NCBI GenBank assembly: GCA_021787395.1
Contig: JAJYLZ010000008.1
Location: forward strand, 11,290 to 75,289
From: Chloroflexota bacterium
GTDB lineage: Bacteria > Chloroflexota > Limnocylindria > Limnocylindrales > CSP1-4
Direction of reading: 5' to 3'
Length of the DNA: 64,000 bases
This document shows positions 43,289 to 52,972 of the stretch, in pieces (the stretch's first letter is position 1; each line of letters opens with the position of its first letter). The position numbers and the translations under genes are program-made. Under the pieces are notes generated by a model, which saw only the letters and a program-made list of their open reading frames with translations, made no database searches and was not told the origin of the DNA.

Positions 43289-45310
43289 TCAGGCGGCCCC
43301 CGAGCAGTCGTACAGGCTGCCGCCGCCCGCCCCGGCGACCTGGCGGCAGTGGCCCTGGACCCAAGCGTTGCGCTCGCCGGCCACGCTCCCCTGCCCGTCC
43401 CCGCCGAAGAACCCGCCGGGTCCCGCTCCCCGCCCGCCGAGCAGGACGTACCGCAGCTGCCCGTCGTGCACGTACTGCTGGAGCTGCTCCAGGGTCGGGA
43501 CCGGGTCGCTGCCCATGAAGCCGCCCATCGCCATGACCGGGACGCCGGACGCGAGCTGGAGCGGTCCGGCCGCGCTGGCCGACGAGACCGCCACCAGCCA
43601 GGTGGCCGAGCCCCGGTTGGCGACGAGGTAGTCAACCAGGGCGCGGTCGGTGCCGCCGGGATCGCCGCGGAAGCCGGCGAAGCCACCTGGCCCAGGCAAG
43701 CCACTCGGCCCGCCGCCGACGGGCCCGGCCGCCGGGTCGCCGCCCGTGATCGCCCGGCCGACCGTCGCCGCCGTCCAGACGGACGGCCCGACCAGGATCG
43801 CCGCCAGGCCCGCCGCCGCCGCACCCTGCGCGATCCGCCGCGCGCCCCGGTCGCCCGGGACCGCCGGCATCACCAGGATGATCGACGCGGCCAGCGCCAC
43901 GCCCAGGGCCCCGATGCCGAGCCCGGGCAGGAACGCGGGCGCGCGCCCCAGCAGCTGGAGCTGCCACCAGGCGGTGGCGAGCAGGATCAGCGCGAGCAGC
44001 GCCCCGGCCCACGCCACTCGGTCGCGGAGGCGCCACGCCTCGACCAGGCCGGCGCCGGTGAGCGCGGCTGCGGCCGGCGCGATGGCCGCCGAGTAGTACG
44101 GGTGCGCGATCCCGCCCATGAGGCTGAACACCAGGATGTGGACCACGGCCCAGCTGCCCCACAGCAGGAGGCCGGCCCGGCGCCCGTCCCGGCGCGGGGC
44201 CCGCCAGCGGGCAGCCAGACCCACCGCGAGGCCGATCCCGGCCGACGGCAGCAGCCAGCTGATCTCCGTCCCCCACTCCGCGTTGAACATGCGGAGCAGA
44301 CCCGGCGCGCCGCCGAAGCTCCCGCCGGGGCCGCCGAAGCCGCGGGCCGCGAACCCGCCCGGTCCGCCGGGCAGTCCGCCGGGGCCGCTGGGGGCACCGC
44401 CGGTCCGGCCGAAGATGCGGCCGAGCCCGTCGTAGCCGAACACCAGGTCGAGGACGGAGTTGTCGGTGCTGCCGCCGATGTACGGGCGCGAGCTCGCGGG
44501 GATCAGCTGCACGATCGCCACCCACCAGCCCGAGGCGGCCAGCGTGGCCGCGGCGGCGAGGGTCAGCCCGGCCAGCCGCCGCCGCAGGCTGCCGCGACCC
44601 GCCGCCAGGTAGGTCAGCGCGAACCCCGGCAGCACCAGGTACGCCTGGAGGTACTTGGTCAGGAAGCCCAGACCCACGAGGGCGCCGGCCAGGGCGAGCC
44701 AGGCGCGGCGGTCCGACTCGAGCGCCCGGACGAGCGCCCAGGCGGCCGCCACCAGCAGCAGGACCAGCAGGGCGTCCGGGTTGTTGTAGCGGAACATGAG
44801 CGCGGCGACCGGGGTCAGGGCCAGCGCCAGGCCGGCGATCACGGCCGCCGGGAGGCCGAACTGCCGCCGGACTGCGTCGTACAGGAGGACGGCTGCGGCC
44901 ACCCCGCACAGGGCCTCCGGGAGCAGGACCGCGAACGGGCTCAGCCCGAGCGCCCGCACCGAGAGGCCCATCAGCCACAGGGCGGCCGGCGGCTTGTCCA
45001 CCGTGATGAACCCGGCCGGGTCGAGGGACCCGAAGAACATCGCCGACCAGCTCTGGCCGGCAGCCTGCGCGGCGGCCGAGTAGTAGGTGTTCGCGTAGCC
45101 GCTGACGTCCAGCGCCCACAGGCAGACCGCAGCCGCCAGCAGGGCCACGAGGACGGCGCCCGCCCAGGCGGACGGCTCCAGCGCGCCGCGGGCCGCCAGC
45201 GCGATCCTGGGCGCCGAGCCGGCACGCCCCGGCTCGCGAACCGGCGATGGAGACATGGGAGCAGAGAGGCTCAAGGGCGGAGACCGGTGCCGGACAGACG
45301 TTCGCGGCAC
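43289..45310 (-). CDS. ArnT/PMT-like GT-C glycosyltransferase (family 39)
   Basis: YANTYY, VDKPP, RYNNPD, GFLTKYLQA and many TM helices; start may be 45256. Confidence 0.9.
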   Translation of the reverse strand: MPRTSVRHRSPPLSLSAPMSPSPVREPGRAGSAPRIALAARGALEPSAWAGAVLVALLAAAVCLWALDVSGYANTYYSAAAQAAGQSWSAMFFGSLDPAGFITVDKPPAALWLMGLSVRALGLSPFAVLLPEALCGVAAAVLLYDAVRRQFGLPAAVIAGLALALTPVAALMFRYNNPDALLVLLLVAAAWALVRALESDRRAWLALAGALVGLGFLTKYLQAYLVLPGFALTYLAAGRGSLRRRLAGLTLAAAATLAASGWWVAIVQLIPASSRPYIGGSTDNSVLDLVFGYDGLGRIFGRTGGAPSGPGGLPGGPGGFAARGFGGPGGSFGGAPGLLRMFNAEWGTEISWLLPSAGIGLAVGLAARWRAPRRDGRRAGLLLWGSWAVVHILVFSLMGGIAHPYYSAAIAPAAAALTGAGLVEAWRLRDRVAWAGALLALILLATAWWQLQLLGRAPAFLPGLGIGALGVALAASIILVMPAVPGDRGARRIAQGAAAAGLAAILVGPSVWTAATVGRAITGGDPAAGPVGGGPSGLPGPGGFAGFRGDPGGTDRALVDYLVANRGSATWLVAVSSASAAGPLQLASGVPVMAMGGFMGSDPVPTLEQLQQYVHDGQLRYVLLGGRGAGPGGFFGGDGQGSVAGERNAWVQGHCRQVAGAGGGSLYDCSGAA

Positions 45311-45911: not shown

Positions 45912-46688
45912 TCAGCCGGCGGGACCCGGAACCTCCGCGGCCGGCGGCGAGAGGAGCGGCGAGGCGGGCGCGCTCGGCGAGGGCGTCGCGCTGGGCGCGG
46001 GCGACACCATCGACGCCCCGCCGATGTCGTGGCACAGGACGCAGGTGTCGTCACCGCGCAGCGCATGGTCGATCGGCAGCGCCCCCACGCTCGACGACTG
46101 GTGGCAGTCGCGGCACTTGAGGTTCTGGGGGTCCGGGTGCGGCTTGATCGGCGGCGGGGACGGGTTGGGCTTGTGGCACAGCTCGCAGTCGTTCTGGTTC
46201 CGCCCGACCATCGAGGTCGGCAGGTGGGCGACGGAGCCGTGGCAGTCGAGGCAGGGCTTGTTGAGCGCGGCGTGCGCCTGGGTGATCGCCGGTCCCTGCA
46301 CGGGCTCCTTGTGGCAGTTGGTGCACTCGCTCTCCGGGATGCCGTCGTGGCCCGGCGCCGTCCTGCCCAGCTCCTCGTTGGTGTGGCAGGTCAGGCAGGC
46401 CGTGAAGCCGGCCAGCGGGTGGCCCATGGCGGGGATCGTCTTGACGGCCGCTGAGCCGCCGCCCTCGTGGCACAGCACGCACTGCGCCGAGGTGGGGATG
46501 TGCGCGATGCCCATCTGGAACAGGCCCCCCGACGGCGAGGCCGCGGCGGCGCCCGTGTCGGCCGGGACCGAGGATCGGGTCGGGATCAGCTGGAGCCAGT
46601 TGGCGACCATCAGCGCGGCCAGCATGGCCACCATCGTGAGGTTCAGCAGGATCAGGACGCGGAGCGTCCGGTCCAGTCGCCGTCTCAT
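45912..46688 (-). CDS. membrane-anchored multiheme cytochrome c (7 CxxCH)
   Basis: CVLCH, CLTCH, CTNCH, CLDCH, CELCH, CRDCH, CVLCH; N-terminal hydrophobic helix; ATGA overlap with the protease gene. Confidence 0.9.
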   Translation of the reverse strand: MRRRLDRTLRVLILLNLTMVAMLAALMVANWLQLIPTRSSVPADTGAAAASPSGGLFQMGIAHIPTSAQCVLCHEGGGSAAVKTIPAMGHPLAGFTACLTCHTNEELGRTAPGHDGIPESECTNCHKEPVQGPAITQAHAALNKPCLDCHGSVAHLPTSMVGRNQNDCELCHKPNPSPPPIKPHPDPQNLKCRDCHQSSSVGALPIDHALRGDDTCVLCHDIGGASMVSPAPSATPSPSAPASPLLSPPAAEVPGPAG

Positions 46689-47233
46689 GCCGTCGCCCCC
46701 TTGGGGCTGCCGCCACCCGGCCCACCGGCAGTCGCCACGAGTCCGCCCAGCTGGCTCAGGTGGTCCAGCACCGCCGCGACCGCCCGGGGGAGCGCGGCCG
46801 CCACCGGCTCGGAGAGGCCGGCGCCCAGCTCCGTCTTGCCGACTTGGACGCCCACCAACGCCACCGACTGCGGCAGCCAGCCCATGAGCCGGGCCACGGC
46901 CAGCAGCTCCCCCACGCCGCCGGGGATGCAGCGGCCCCATGCGGCGCCGGCGGCCTGGATCTCGGCGCCGCGGAGCACGGTCACGGTGCCGGCCGGCTGG
47001 TCGAGGTCCACCGCGTCGATCAGCAGCAGACTCCGCGCGCCCTCCACGTCGGCCAGCAGGTCCACGCCCAGCGTTCCGCCGTCCACGAGCCGCGTGGCCT
47101 CCGGCAGGGCGCCCGGGTCGCGCTCCGCGATGGCGCGCAGCGCCTCCACGGCCCGCACGCCGACGCCGTCGTCCCCGAGCAGGACGTTGCCCACCCCGAT
47201 CACGACAGCCGGGCCCTCGGCGTCAGGGATCAT
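46685..47233 (-). CDS. hyaD: hydrogenase maturation endopeptidase
   Basis: GVGNVLLGDDGVG, DGGT and IDA. Confidence 0.9.
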   Translation of the reverse strand: MIPDAEGPAVVIGVGNVLLGDDGVGVRAVEALRAIAERDPGALPEATRLVDGGTLGVDLLADVEGARSLLLIDAVDLDQPAGTVTVLRGAEIQAAGAAWGRCIPGGVGELLAVARLMGWLPQSVALVGVQVGKTELGAGLSEPVAAALPRAVAAVLDHLSQLGGLVATAGGPGGGSPKGATA

Positions 47234-48030
47234 GCGTCGGCCCTCTTGGCTGCCTGCTCGAGCACCTCGGGGCCGCCGTCCCGGGACTCCACGACCTCCT
47301 CCCGGGTCGGGAACTTGTAGCCGGTGAACATGCTCGTGACCACGCCCACGTTCTCGATGTGGTCGACGAGGACGCAGCTGTACACGTGGAACAGCGCGAT
47401 GGCCAGGATCAGCCACATCGTCAGGTGGTGGACCAACCGCAGCATCTGCGGGCCGAGCAGCTCGCGCAGCCAGGCGAAGGCCGTGGCGCCCGGCTCGGCG
47501 CCCATCAGCCCGTCGAGCGCGAAGCCCGTGACGGTCTCCACCAGCAGCAGCGCGAACAGGGCGAGGTATGCCGCCGCCGCCAGCTGGTTGTGGCCGAGGA
47601 CCTTGGGGATCTCGCTGCGGACGAAGCCGTAGAACCCGGCCTGGCGGAAGAGCTCGGTGAACTGCGTGCGGTTGGTCGGGATGAACGCAGTCCAGCGGAC
47701 GAAGCGGTTGCCCGCCAGCAGGTAGACCGTGCGCACGACGCCCGAGACCAGGAACGTCAGGGCGGTGATGATGTGGACCAGCCGGATGGTCGTCATGACG
47801 TTGCCGCCCGGCGGGATGAGGAACGGATCCGCGATGTAGCCCCCGGTGAGGCTCAGGGTCACGATGCAGATCGCCGTGACCCAGTGCGTGATGCGGACCG
47901 GCGCCTGCCAGATGTAGACGGCCACCCGGTCGTTGGGCCGCTGCACCGCGTGATGGGCGGCACCGGCACCGTGGGCGGACGCGCCGGTCGGGGCCGCCGG
48001 AGCGGCCAGGGGCTCGTCGAGCGCGGTCAT
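47230..48030 (-). CDS. hyaC: Ni/Fe-hydrogenase cytochrome b subunit
   Basis: VRITHW, RLVH, GHN, RLVHH and FHVY; 4 TM helices. Confidence 0.92.
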   Translation of the reverse strand: MTALDEPLAAPAAPTGASAHGAGAAHHAVQRPNDRVAVYIWQAPVRITHWVTAICIVTLSLTGGYIADPFLIPPGGNVMTTIRLVHIITALTFLVSGVVRTVYLLAGNRFVRWTAFIPTNRTQFTELFRQAGFYGFVRSEIPKVLGHNQLAAAAYLALFALLLVETVTGFALDGLMGAEPGATAFAWLRELLGPQMLRLVHHLTMWLILAIALFHVYSCVLVDHIENVGVVTSMFTGYKFPTREEVVESRDGGPEVLEQAAKRADA

Positions 48031-49802
48031 CGGATGTCCTCCCCGACTCGGGCCACCACCTCGGCGGGCGTGTCCCGACGGGGGCTGAACACGTGCGCGG
48101 CGCAGGCGGCGCAGGGCGCGAACGAGTGGACGACGCGGAGCGCCTCGAGCGGGCGCTGGGCGTCTGCGATCGGCGTGCCGACGAGCGCGGTCTCGATGGG
48201 GCCCCGGAGGTTCGACCCGTCGCGCGGCGAGAGGTTCCAGGTCGAGGCGTCGATCACCTGGTAGTCAGCGACGACCGCGTCGCGGATCGTGACCCAGTGG
48301 GCGACCGTGCCCCGCGGCCCCTCGCCCAGCGAGAACCCCTTGGCCTCCGACGGCCAGGAGCCGGGGTCCCAGTAGGTGACGTCGGCGACGGCGACGTCAC
48401 CGGCGCCCAGGTTGGCGCGCAGGTCCCCGAGCCAGAGCGGCAGCTGCTGCACGACCACCTCGGCCTCTGCGGACCGGGCCAGCAGCCGGCCCACGACGCC
48501 GCCCAGCTTGTCAACGGTCAGGTTCAGGGAGTTCACCCGCTGGGCGATCGCGGCCGTCAGGTCGGCCTGCCCGTTGGCCAGGCCGACGAGGACCCGCGCC
48601 AAGGGGCCAACCTCCATGGGCACGCCCCGGTAGCGCGGCGCCTTGACCCACGAATACGCCGTGGCACCCTCGAGGCTCTGGATCGGCAGGGCCAGGCCCG
48701 GCCAGGCTGGCGTGGTCTGCCCGGCGCTACCGCTGAGCAGGGTGTCGTTGCCGCCCGAGTGGAGGTACCAGGAGCTGGTCACGGTCTCGGTGAACTCGGC
48801 GTTCTCCACGCGCTGGGACGCCTCGAGGTTGCCCTGGTCGAGGCGACCCGTCGGGAACAACGGCTCCGGCGTGTCCTTGGCCCCCTGGGGGAACTCCCCG
48901 GCCGACAGGCACCCGCCGGGACCCGCCCCGAGTCCCACATACTCCGGGTAGGCGGCGGCCAGCAGGGCGACGTCGGGCACGAAGGCCCCCAGCACGAAGT
49001 CGCGGGCGCTGACCATCTGGCCGCTCATGAAACCGTAACCGTCGGGGCTCAACGCCTCCGGGGAGTTGGCGTCCGGGACCTGCGGGTGGTCCCGCCCGGA
49101 CGCCCCCGACGGGCCTCCCCACGGTGGCGCCACCGCCATGCCGCCCACGAGGTAGGTCTGCGGATGCGGGTCCTTGCCGCCGAGCAGCGTCTGGATGCGC
49201 ATGAACTCCCGCTGCCAGCCGATCGCCTCGAGCATGTGGGCGACCAGCAGGAGGTCCTGCTCGGGCGACAGGCGGTAGGCCGGGTGCCCCCACCAGCCGT
49301 TGCCCAGGACACCCGGGTGGCCGTCCGCCAGCTCGGCCCTCAGCCGGTCCTGGACCTTGGCGAAGTCGCTGGCCGCCTGTCCCTGGCGCTGCGCCTGTGA
49401 CGCCGCCAGCTTCGCGGTCGCGGCGGGGTCCGCGGTCGTGGCGGCCTGGACGTCCACCCAGTCCTGCAGCTGCGACAGGTAGAAGTCCATGACGTGGTCG
49501 CGGACGAGCATGGTCCCGGCGAGCAGGTTGCGGATGTGCCGGGCGTTGGTCGGGATGGTGATCGCGAGCGCGTTCTCGACGGCCCGGACCGACGCCAGGG
49601 CATGGACGCCCGTGCAGGTGCCGCAGATGCGCTGCGCCAGGAGCCAGGCGTCCCGCGGGTCCCGGCCCCGCAGGCTGAGCTCCAGCCCTCGGAACGTCAT
49701 CCCCGAGGCCCAGGCGTCCGAGACGACGCCGCCGTCCACGGCGAGCTCGACGCGGGCGCTCCCGCCGGCGCGGGTCAACGGGTCAATCGCAAGCCTCGGC
49801 AC
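48027..49802 (-). CDS. hyaB: group 1 [NiFe]-hydrogenase-like large subunit, divergent active-site shell
   Basis: L1 RICGTCTGVH, FRGLE, GKDPH, YSWVKAPR, EGPRG, L2 SFAPCAACAAH plus a 21-aa cleavable tail. Confidence 0.9.
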   Translation of the reverse strand: MPRLAIDPLTRAGGSARVELAVDGGVVSDAWASGMTFRGLELSLRGRDPRDAWLLAQRICGTCTGVHALASVRAVENALAITIPTNARHIRNLLAGTMLVRDHVMDFYLSQLQDWVDVQAATTADPAATAKLAASQAQRQGQAASDFAKVQDRLRAELADGHPGVLGNGWWGHPAYRLSPEQDLLLVAHMLEAIGWQREFMRIQTLLGGKDPHPQTYLVGGMAVAPPWGGPSGASGRDHPQVPDANSPEALSPDGYGFMSGQMVSARDFVLGAFVPDVALLAAAYPEYVGLGAGPGGCLSAGEFPQGAKDTPEPLFPTGRLDQGNLEASQRVENAEFTETVTSSWYLHSGGNDTLLSGSAGQTTPAWPGLALPIQSLEGATAYSWVKAPRYRGVPMEVGPLARVLVGLANGQADLTAAIAQRVNSLNLTVDKLGGVVGRLLARSAEAEVVVQQLPLWLGDLRANLGAGDVAVADVTYWDPGSWPSEAKGFSLGEGPRGTVAHWVTIRDAVVADYQVIDASTWNLSPRDGSNLRGPIETALVGTPIADAQRPLEALRVVHSFAPCAACAAHVFSPRRDTPAEVVARVGEDIR

Positions 49803-49803
49803 G

Positions 49804-51042
49804 TCAGCGCCCCTCCCGCCCGACGGGGGCGTCAGGGCGACCGTCAGCCTCGTCGGCGGCCCCGTGCTCGGCCGGCGCGAGGCCGACTGTCGCAGCGGGC
49901 TCGGACCGCCTCCCCGCATCGCCGACCGCCGGCGGGAGCGGGCCCAGCGGGACGGCGGCGGCTCGCTCGTGGGCAGCGATCATGCGCCGGCGCTTGAACC
50001 GCACCCCCATGCCCACCGCGTGGACGCCCATCACGCCCGCCACCCCGCCCAGGAGCGCGCCGCCGACCATGTCCACGGTCACGTTGGGGAGGAACGGGAC
50101 GGGCGAGGGCAGGCGCTTGTAGGCCGGGCCCATCGCGTTCCAGAAGCTCGGCGTCATGCAGCCCACGCAGCCGTGCCCGGCGCGGACGTTCCAGCTGGTC
50201 TTCTCGCCGTACCTGACGGTCGGGCAGTTGCCCATCGTCTCGGGGCCCTTGCAGCCCAGCTTGTACAGGCACCAGCCCCTCTGGGCGCCCTCATCGCCCC
50301 ACTCGGTGGCGAACTCCCCGAACTCGAAGTGCGGCCGCCGCTCGCACTGGTTGTGGATGAGGTCGCCGTAGGCGGCCAGGGGCCGGCTCGCGAGGTCGGC
50401 TGGGGGCAGCTCGTTGAAGGTGAGGTAGTGGACGATGACCGCCGCCAGGTTCACCGGGTTCACCGGGCAGCCGGGCAGGGCCATGTACCGGGCGCCCGCC
50501 AGGGCCCGCACGCCGCCCGCGCCCGTGGGGTTGGAGCCCGCGGCCGGGGCGCCGCCGTCGCAGGCGCAGGAGCCGACCGCGATGGTGGCCAGCGCCCCGG
50601 CGCACACCTCCCGCACGACATCGGCGGCCGGGCGACCGCCGATCAGGCAGTAGGCGCCCGAGGCGCCGCTCGGGATCGAGCCCTCGACGACCGCGAAGTA
50701 GCCGTTCCGGTAGCGGTCCATGGCGCTCGTGCGCGCCAGCTCGGCGTCACCGCCCGCCACCCCGAGGAACGCGTCGTGGTACTGGATGTCCAGGACGTCG
50801 AGGAACAGCGCGACGGTGTCAGGGTCCGACGACCGCAGGAACGCCTCGGTGTCGCCGCCGCAGGCCTGGCCGCGGATCCAGATGACCGGAAGGCGCTTGC
50901 TGCCCTCGACGGCGGCGGCGATCCGCGGAGCGTAGGACAGGGGCAGGGCGAGGGCCGCCGCCATGGCGGCCGAGAACTGGAGGAAGGATCGCCGGGTCAT
51001 CCCCCGCCGCACCAGCGCGGCGTACAGCCCGTCGTCCTGCAT
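49804..51042 (-). CDS. hyaA: group 1 [NiFe]-hydrogenase-like small subunit (Tat signal, C-terminal TM anchor)
   Basis: TRRSFLQ, ACGGD, GSCAC, PGCP, HNQCERR, CLYKLGCKGP, NC and GHGCVGC. Confidence 0.92.
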   Translation of the reverse strand: MQDDGLYAALVRRGMTRRSFLQFSAAMAAALALPLSYAPRIAAAVEGSKRLPVIWIRGQACGGDTEAFLRSSDPDTVALFLDVLDIQYHDAFLGVAGGDAELARTSAMDRYRNGYFAVVEGSIPSGASGAYCLIGGRPAADVVREVCAGALATIAVGSCACDGGAPAAGSNPTGAGGVRALAGARYMALPGCPVNPVNLAAVIVHYLTFNELPPADLASRPLAAYGDLIHNQCERRPHFEFGEFATEWGDEGAQRGWCLYKLGCKGPETMGNCPTVRYGEKTSWNVRAGHGCVGCMTPSFWNAMGPAYKRLPSPVPFLPNVTVDMVGGALLGGVAGVMGVHAVGMGVRFKRRRMIAAHERAAAVPLGPLPPAVGDAGRRSEPAATVGLAPAEHGAADEADGRPDAPVGREGR

Positions 51043-51475: not shown

Positions 51476-52972
51476 TCAGCCGGGCTGGTTGTCGATCTGG
51501 GCGCGCTGGAGGCGGCCGCTGAAGTCCACGTAGACGGCTTTCCACTCGGTGAACGTGTCCAGCGCCACGTGGCCCGCCTCGCGGTGGCCGTTGCCGGTGT
51601 CCTTCCAGCCGCCGAACGGGAGGTGCGTCTCCGCGCCCGTGGTGCCGGCGTTGACGTACACGATGCCGGCCTCGAAGTCGCGCATCGCGCGGAAGGCGGC
51701 GTTGACGTCCCGGGTGAACACCGACGCGGAGAGGCCGTAGTGGGTCCCGTTCGCCGCCGCGAGCGCCTCGGCGTAGCCGTCGACCGGGATCACCGACAGC
51801 ACCGGGCCGAAGATCTCCTCCTGGGCGATGCGGGCCATCGGGCCGACGCCGGTGAACACCGTGGGCTGGTAGAAGTGGCCGTGGGCGAGGTCACCGGCTG
51901 TCTCGCGCTCGCCGCCGCAGACGAGCTCGCCCTCGCCGCGGCCGATGGCGACGTAGGACGCCACCTTGGCAACGGCGGGGGCGTTGACGAGCGGCCCCAC
52001 CTCGACCGTCTCGTCGAGGCCGGATCCCAGCCGCAGGCGCTCGGCGCGCTCGGCGAGCCGGCGGACCAGCTCGTCCGCGATCGGCCGGTCGGCGATCACC
52101 CGCGAGCAGGCCGTGCAGCGCTGGCCCGTGGTGCCGAACGCGGACCACAGGATGCCGTCCACGGCGAGGTCGAGGTCGGCGTCGCGCAGCACCACCACCG
52201 CGTTCTTGCCGCCCAGCTCGAGCGACACCCGCTTGAGGCGGCGGCCCGCCCGCTCCGCGATGGCCCGGCCGGTGACGGACGAGCCGGTGAAGCTGATGAC
52301 CGGGACGTCGGGACTGTCCACGATCGCGTCGCCGACCTCGCCGCCCGCGCCGGTCACCAGGTTGACCGTGCCGGCCGGGAAGCCCGCCTCCGCCATCAGC
52401 TCCACGAGGAGCGTCGCGCAGTGGGGCGCGTCCGAGGCGGGCTTGAACACGACGGTGTTCCCGCTGACGAGCGCGGGCATCATCTTCCAGCACGGGATCG
52501 CGATCGGGAAGTTCCAGGGCGTGATGATCCCGGCGACCCCCAGCGGCTGGCGCACGCTCATCGCCCACTTGTCGGGCAGCTCCGACGGGACGGTGTCGCC
52601 GAACAGCCGCCGCCCCTCCCCCGCCATGAGGAACGCGATGTCGATCCCCTCCTGGACGTCGCCGCGGGCCTCCGCCAGCACCTTGCCCATCTCGCGGGTC
52701 ATCGCCCGGGCGAGGCGCTCCTTGTGCTCGGCCATCAGGGCGCCGAAGCGGTACAGGATCTCGCCGCGCTTCGGGGCCGGCGTGGCGCGCCAGGCCGGGA
52801 AGGCCTCGCCCGCGGCCCGCACGGCCATGGCCACGTCTGCGGCGGTGCCCGCCTGGAAGCGGCCAACCACGTCGCGGGTGTCGGCCGGGTTGACGCTTTC
52901 GAACGTCGCCCCCGAGACCGAGTCGACCCAGCGGCCGGCGATGAACAACTGGTGCGTGGCAGGCTCGGGCAT
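51476..52972 (-). CDS. NAD(P)-dependent aldehyde dehydrogenase
   Basis: ITPWNFP, FTGS, ELGGKN, GQRCTA, QEEIFGP and PFGG. Confidence 0.95.
   Translation of the reverse strand: MPEPATHQLFIAGRWVDSVSGATFESVNPADTRDVVGRFQAGTAADVAMAVRAAGEAFPAWRATPAPKRGEILYRFGALMAEHKERLARAMTREMGKVLAEARGDVQEGIDIAFLMAGEGRRLFGDTVPSELPDKWAMSVRQPLGVAGIITPWNFPIAIPCWKMMPALVSGNTVVFKPASDAPHCATLLVELMAEAGFPAGTVNLVTGAGGEVGDAIVDSPDVPVISFTGSSVTGRAIAERAGRRLKRVSLELGGKNAVVVLRDADLDLAVDGILWSAFGTTGQRCTACSRVIADRPIADELVRRLAERAERLRLGSGLDETVEVGPLVNAPAVAKVASYVAIGRGEGELVCGGERETAGDLAHGHFYQPTVFTGVGPMARIAQEEIFGPVLSVIPVDGYAEALAAANGTHYGLSASVFTRDVNAAFRAMRDFEAGIVYVNAGTTGAETHLPFGGWKDTGNGHREAGHVALDTFTEWKAVYVDFSGRLQRAQIDNQPG

Follow-up and report, generated by a model that had tools for sequence, protein, structure and literature searches.

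The proximal cluster governs the oxygen handling and the running direction of [NiFe] hydrogenases. To our knowledge, the clusters have been measured in no enzyme of group 1f, nor in any of the lineage described here, which we place beside that group. Group 1f includes the enzymes of Acidobacterium capsulatum and A. ailaaui (PMC5900883), Roseiflexus, Geobacter sulfurreducens (Hya) and Frankia (synton-3), which have a Tat signal, a C-terminal anchor and a cytochrome b; in the small subunits from Roseiflexus, Geobacter and Frankia, Asn or Asp replaces the second Cys of the proximal CxxC motif (PMC5364354). The Frankia subunits are 410–420 amino acids (small) and approximately 573 amino acids (large) in length (PMC11879354). 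Non-Cys residues at the fourth-ligand positions are also found in M. smegmatis Huc (group 2a; 7UTD/8DQV), where the clusters are of the [3Fe-4S] type and the operating potential is raised (PMC10017518). In the group 1h enzyme of C. necator (5AA5) one ligand of the proximal [4Fe-4S] cluster is an Asp, on which the O2 insensitivity of the enzyme depends (PMC11023054). A different arrangement occurs in the membrane-bound, cytochrome-b-linked group 1d enzymes (E. coli Hyd-1, C. necator MBH), which retain all four canonical Cys and add to them, close to the proximal cluster, supernumerary Cys at positions 19 and 120.

We analysed a window of 64,000 nucleotides from a Chloroflexota genome, with a G+C content of approximately 75% throughout; coordinates are those of the window and all of the features described in it lie on the minus strand. 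The gene of interest (49804..51042) encodes a protein of 412 amino acids, P0001, which matched the Pfam families PF10518 (TAT_signal), PF01058 (Oxidored_q6, E 3e-19) and PF14720 (NiFe_hyd_SSU_C, E 1e-29) and scored 361 bits against the hydrogenase small-subunit model TIGR00391 (hydA; cut-off 179.5). In HMMER searches it aligned with the small subunit of the D. vulgaris Miyazaki enzyme (1h2a_S) with an E-value of 1e-80, and its top Foldseek matches were group 1 small subunits, a result that speaks to the general fold only. The protein has the layout of an exported group 1 small subunit, with an N-terminal flavodoxin-like (NuoB-like) domain and a C-terminal Fe-S domain, preceded by a twin-arginine signal peptide, MTRRSFLQFSAAMAAALALP (PF10518, residues 15–34; 50941..51000), and followed by a C-terminal transmembrane anchor helix (50002..50076, within a helix that AlphaFold2 places at residues 323–362) and a low-complexity tail. 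Since 120 homologues (alignment A2) share its start, Tat motif and C-terminal helix, neither chance nor sequencing error is a concern. The closest relatives of P0001 were all from metagenome-assembled genomes of Chloroflexota or Candidatus Limnocylindrales.

The small subunit gene is the first of an operon and is followed, in this order, by genes for a large subunit, a cytochrome b, a maturation protease and a cytochrome c. The large subunit gene (48027..49802) has a GTG start one base past the TGA of the small subunit gene, and the cytochrome b membrane subunit (PF01292) is encoded at 47230..48030. The HycI-type hydrogenase maturation protease (PF01750) was listed as an ORF at 46685..47416 and the membrane-anchored cytochrome c, recognised by Pfam and by a count of seven CxxCH motifs, as an ORF at 45912..46940; both genes probably begin later than listed. 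Next to the operon we saw no hyp maturation genes. Taken together with the Tat signal and the anchor, the adjoining large subunit and cytochrome b genes identify P0001 as the small subunit of a Tat-exported, membrane-anchored, cytochrome-b-linked [NiFe] uptake hydrogenase. An operon that ends in a seven-haem cytochrome c is unlike those of group 1f. The cytochrome c carries an N-terminal helix, and ORFs containing six or seven copies of CxxCH occurred in most of the related loci that were long enough to show one.

The original prediction for this gene, made from the letters of the window, was that the small subunit departs from the usual iron–sulfur ligand motifs in three places and is normal at the distal cluster. 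To fix the motif columns we used HMMER alignments to 1h2a_S and to Hyb-type enzymes and re-read the codons, and all three departures stood, as did the distal site. The proximal CxxC motif of P0001 reads CGGD (residues 61–64; 50851..50862) and aligns with CTGC of 1h2a_S, the general form being CxGC; Cys61 is the first proximal ligand, and Asp64 occupies the column of the second (Cys20 in Hyd-1/MBH numbering), so that the fourth thiolate is missing. The segment that carries the third ligand, Cys159, reads GSCACDGG (residues 157–164; 50551..50574) and aligns with GTCATFGG of 1h2a_S. It has an additional Cys, Cys161, at +2 from the ligand, and an Asp, Asp162, at +3 that was invariant in the family. 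The fourth proximal ligand is Cys192 in a GCP motif (50464..50472), assigned from the family alignment. A further acidic residue, Glu120 of VVEGSIP (50683..50685, counted from the 1h2a_S alignment), was invariant in the 120 homologues; it is the equivalent of Asp81 of Hyd-2, a carboxylate beside the proximal cluster that is able to capture a displaced Fe (PMC5902676). The distal ligands were all present, namely His230 and Cys233 in HNQC (50344..50355) and Cys258 and Cys264 in CLYKLGC (50251..50271). At the medial cluster the first ligand is Cys273 (50224..50226) and the other two, Cys292 and Cys295, lie in SWNVRAGHGCVGC (residues 283–295; 50158..50196), which aligns with NWPVDAGHPCIGC of 1h2a_S and has Asn285 before GHxCxGC, in place of the Pro of standard enzymes and the Cys of NiFeSe enzymes.

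We then asked how the missing proximal Cys is distributed in the family, for which the best 120 homologues (58–95% identical to P0001; alignment A2) were used together with a maximum-likelihood tree rooted on the paralogue encoded in the same genome. Position 64 was Asn in 89 of the sequences, Asp in 23 and Glu in eight, and was never Cys or any other residue. At least 11 changes among these three states occurred on the tree, some of them exchanges of Asn and Asp between near-identical sisters. The strict limitation to Asn, Asp or Glu indicates that a side-chain oxygen is important at this position, and the free exchange of Asn and Asp that the two residues support much the same cluster. The original prediction of a distinct set of motifs fails for the main one, given that absence of the Cys is universal among the homologues and its change to Asn or Asp a published hallmark of group 1f. 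The loss of the Cys at position 64 was thus inherited with the clade and was not an invention of P0001.

A second hydrogenase operon of the same genome, on another contig (G000:C96, locus L083 3242–8192, plus strand), bears on where this loss arose. It encodes a small subunit, a large subunit of 573 amino acids, which matches the length of the Frankia group 1f protein, a cytochrome b and a protease. The motifs of the small subunit are CAGN, CAWDGG and SWPIGAGHGCIAC, with WP before GHGC, and the large subunit retains the RIEGH motif. We obtained an Acidobacterium anchor for group 1f from a homologue search with this small subunit, the two being 66% identical; among the representative clusters, whose names were taken from an exact look-up, Helicobacter and some Bacillota were found, and no group 1f. 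The small subunits from Acidobacterium (P0416), Thermomicrobiaceae (P0420) and Acidobacteriota (P0414) were 63–66% identical to the paralogue and all had CAWDGG; P0420 and P0414 had Asn at the position of the missing Cys and P0416 had a complete CAGC. The Asn/Asp hallmark is thus common in group 1f and short of universal. We conclude that the organism keeps a standard group 1f enzyme as well as a divergent one.

It can be seen from the comparison of the two enzymes that P0001 is close to group 1f and distinct from it. P0001 resembles the group in its length, in its Tat signal, anchor and cytochrome b, in the replacement of Cys in the proximal CxxC (CGGD), and in the CA[WF]DGG and GHGC motifs that its lineage and the paralogue have in common. 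However, P0001 is only 41% identical to the paralogue, its lineage has Asn instead of Pro before GHGC and, at +2, replaces Trp by Phe, Val or Cys, and its partner large subunit is without the Glu of RIEGH and without the Asp of DPC in L2. The N-terminus of that large subunit reads DPLTRAGGSA where RIEGH is found elsewhere, so that the proton-gate Glu is absent; its L1 motif is RICGTCTGVH and its L2 motif SFAPCAACAAH, in which DPC has become APC, and the canonical catalytic shell of group 1f (RIEGH Glu, DPCxxCxxH) is accordingly missing. None of the large subunits that we recovered from 80 related genome loci kept the RIEGH Glu, and the L2 residue was Asp in basal members of the lineage with WP before the medial motif and Ala or Asn in those with WN. 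With RAGGS for RIEGH and APC for DPC the lineage is no plain member of group 1f. In the small-subunit tree it grouped with the group 1f paralogue of its own genome (SH-aLRT 93), and the lineage and clusters of the CAGN and CTGD type fell in one clade (SH-aLRT 99); the clusters with which it grouped at these two levels were of the CAGN, CTGD and CAGD type. We treat this large Chloroflexota lineage, which is of the Limnocylindria type, as a sister or variant beside group 1f.

The original prediction also held that the unusual proximal motif had co-evolved with the altered large subunit. The paralogue argues against this, since there CAGN and CAWDGG stand beside a large subunit with RIEGH, and the change of Cys to Asn or Asp and the CAxDGG motif must therefore predate the alteration of the large subunit. 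A broad sample of small subunits, obtained by scanning all of 1.84 billion representative proteins and grouped in 50%-identity clusters, contained 28 other clusters in which the fourth ligand is replaced by Asn, Asp or Glu, and these were spread over several separate small-subunit clades.

What remains of that prediction is a proximal cluster with altered ligation and a shifted potential, which is a fair inference from the absence of the fourth thiolate once co-evolution with the large subunit is set aside. We consider it probable that P0001 has a proximal site of the Asp type that was inherited with its clade, in which three thiolates (Cys61, Cys159 and Cys192) are complemented by Asp64 and the additional Cys161 is not a ligand. 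Asp64 would cap or ligate the fourth corner of the cluster. By analogy with the actinobacterial-type enzyme of C. necator, the cluster could well be a [4Fe-4S] with three Cys and one Asp, a reading to which we give a little under an even chance; a [3Fe-4S] cluster as in Huc is a serious and somewhat less favoured candidate. The choice is close, as the exchange of Asn and Asp would be awkward if Asp gave a 4Fe and Asn a 3Fe cluster. Neither model enzyme is a close match. The group 1h enzyme has a proximal site of three Cys and one Asp, a likeness drawn from the published ligand set and not from an aligned column; it is cytoplasmic and lacks the Tat signal, anchor and cytochrome b that P0001 and its operon have, and its small subunit (5aa5_A) was the weakest PDB match to P0001 (E 1e-20, as against 1e-80 for group 1b). 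Huc resembles P0001 in having non-Cys residues at fourth-ligand positions; however, it is cytosolic and oligomeric, reduces menaquinone directly and has 3Fe clusters at all three positions, whereas the distal site of P0001, with His and three Cys, is canonical. Under either of the two main options we expect a potential above that of an all-Cys cubane, which would bias the enzyme towards H2 oxidation.

With the missing Cys accounted for by the clade, the sole new element in the proximal motifs is the extra Cys, which is most likely a non-ligand substitution. In the best 120 homologues position 161 was Phe in 67, Cys in 25, Val in 19, Ser in four, Ala in three, and Thr and His in one each, and seven changes between Cys and non-Cys were counted on the tree. 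Cys161 was found in 21 of the 25 members of a subclade with 99% support that includes P0001, and outside this subclade it arose at least three more times. Asp64 was likewise concentrated there, in 17 of the 25 members as against six of the 95 other homologues, and this coincidence in a supported subclade may point to a subclade-specific function. Nevertheless, within the subclade 75% of the core columns equalled or exceeded position 161 in conservation, whereas all of the ligand Cys were conserved without exception and position 64 was strictly Asp or Asn. In the broad sample, eight of the 131 other 50%-identity clusters had Cys at +2, and of the six of these in which both motifs could be scored, three had a complete CxxC; an example is the small subunit P0166 of Helicobacter sp. 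15-1451/H. monodelphidis, with CSGC and GSCACYGG. The suggestion that the extra Cys is a co-evolved element of the cluster therefore finds no support, as the position is variable and weakly conserved and Cys also occurs there beside a complete set of ligands. We think it probable that Cys161 is no cluster ligand and that it simply stands in for the Phe or Val of its relatives; its distribution is that of a neutral or packing substitution.

We also looked for changes elsewhere in the protein that accompany the extra Cys. Phe80 and Tyr186 followed Cys161 in the main subclade and were missing at the independent origins of Cys161, so that they reflect a clade signal and not compensation. Cys147, a candidate disulfide partner, showed no co-variation with Cys161, and no other partner Cys co-varying with it was found among the homologues. 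Independent contrasts gave no signal of coupling between Asp64 and Cys161, in a test that had few informative pairs and no statistical power. Three homologues (P0029, P0040 and P0117) have Ser for the Cys of GCP at position 192 and are left with two proximal Cys, and all three lack Cys161, which indicates that Cys161 does not make up for loss of Cys192 either.

An alternative explanation for the extra Cys that would restore an all-Cys [4Fe-4S] cluster is that the fourth thiolate has moved, with Cys161 binding as a CxC pair with Cys159 and Asp64 relegated to the second shell. There is a vacancy at the cluster, since the canonical fourth Cys is missing, and Cys161 lies only two residues from a ligand, in the loop around the cluster, and is the prevailing residue in its subclade. 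Against this, Ser or Ala persists at position 161 in some members of that subclade; three quarters of the core columns surpass this position in conservation; the strict Asn/Asp at position 64 shows that constraint there has not been relaxed; other relatives carry bulky Phe or Val at 161; and Cys at +2 also occurs in enzymes with four Cys ligands. An AlphaFold2 model built from the 120-sequence alignment is weak evidence on the same side. Its quality is modest (mean pLDDT 66, and below 50 in the C-terminal Fe-S domain) and it places residues 158–162 in a helical turn, in which the side chain at +2 would face away from Cys159 and that at +3 towards it. We therefore regard a transfer of the ligand to Cys161, like any role of this residue at the proximal cluster, as improbable, at around one chance in a dozen.

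Another alternative is that Asp162 of the CAxDGG motif, and not residue 64, is the true fourth proximal ligand throughout the clade. All 120 homologues have Asp162, as does the group 1f paralogue, and it takes the place of an aromatic residue found at +3 in other groups, and in the broad sample Asp stood at +3 in half of the clusters with Asn, Asp or Glu at ligand position 2, as against five of 63 all-Cys clusters. It was, however, absent from 14 clusters with Asn, Asp or Glu at ligand position 2, and conversely the Acidobacterium group 1f small subunit with its complete CAGC still has CAWDGG and the five other all-Cys clusters have Asp at +3 as well. Since all-Cys relatives also carry it, we rejected Asp162 as a substitute ligand, which we hold to be marginally less probable still than the transfer to Cys161; the occurrence of Asp at +3 with and without loss of the Cys marks it as a clade trait that is independent of that loss.

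Least probable of all, and in our estimate quite remote, is that Cys161 and Asp64 together form a flexible proximal cluster for O2 tolerance analogous to the six-Cys [4Fe-3S] of group 1d: extra Cys near the proximal cluster do confer O2 tolerance in group 1d, and O2 insensitivity in group 1h requires the Asp ligand (PMC11023054), and the combination of Asp64 and Cys161 is enriched in one subclade, but P0001 has Gly63 and Gly164 in the two columns of the supernumerary group 1d Cys and Asp in that of Cys20, the position of Cys161 varies, and in the contrasts, which had little power, changes at these two residues were not coupled. A new coordination in the Asp64–Cys161 subclade, whether by a CxC-bound fourth thiolate or as a redox-flexible cluster with five ligands, is thus unlikely overall. 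If true, the five-ligand cluster would be a functional analogue of the O2-tolerant [4Fe-3S] built from different residues, and the new coordination would sit in an enzyme that has also lost its proton-gate Glu.

The third departure, Asn285 before the medial motif, is the norm of the lineage: 109 of the best 120 homologues had Asn at this position, nine had Pro, and one each had Thr and Ser, and Ala was also seen there in further genomes. The three medial Cys were invariant in the 120 sequences. In D. fructosovorans the substitution P238C, which introduces a Cys at the equivalent place, shifts the potential of the medial cluster from +65 to −250 mV (PMC4463661), and a Cys before GHxCxGC is the mark of the group 1a [NiFeSe]-type medial [4Fe-4S] cluster. 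With Asn here, the medial cluster of P0001 should be a [3Fe-4S] held by three Cys, and Asn285 would at most tune it through a hydrogen bond. The basal members of the lineage, which have Glu64, still have WP and are already without the large-subunit Glu, and the Asn therefore arose within the lineage, later than the loss of that Glu.

On the preferred reading of a three-Cys, Asp-type proximal site, electrons would pass from the NiFe site through the proximal, medial and distal clusters to the cytochrome b, the distal cluster being presumably the usual [4Fe-4S] with His and three Cys and the donor to the cytochrome. The set of features in P0001 is real and largely ordinary for its clade, the main motif being a known clade trait. 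The lineage nonetheless offers a natural series of Asn, Asp and Glu at the site of the missing Cys, with or without a neighbouring Cys, which is suited to a study of the choice between 3Fe and 4Fe clusters at sites of this kind.

The operon is flanked in the window by genes of other kinds. Downstream, at 43289–45310, are genes for a PMT_2/YkcB-type glycosyltransferase and a phosphoribosyltransferase, and upstream, at 51476–52972, is an ORF of 498 amino acids that by eye resembles an aldehyde dehydrogenase.
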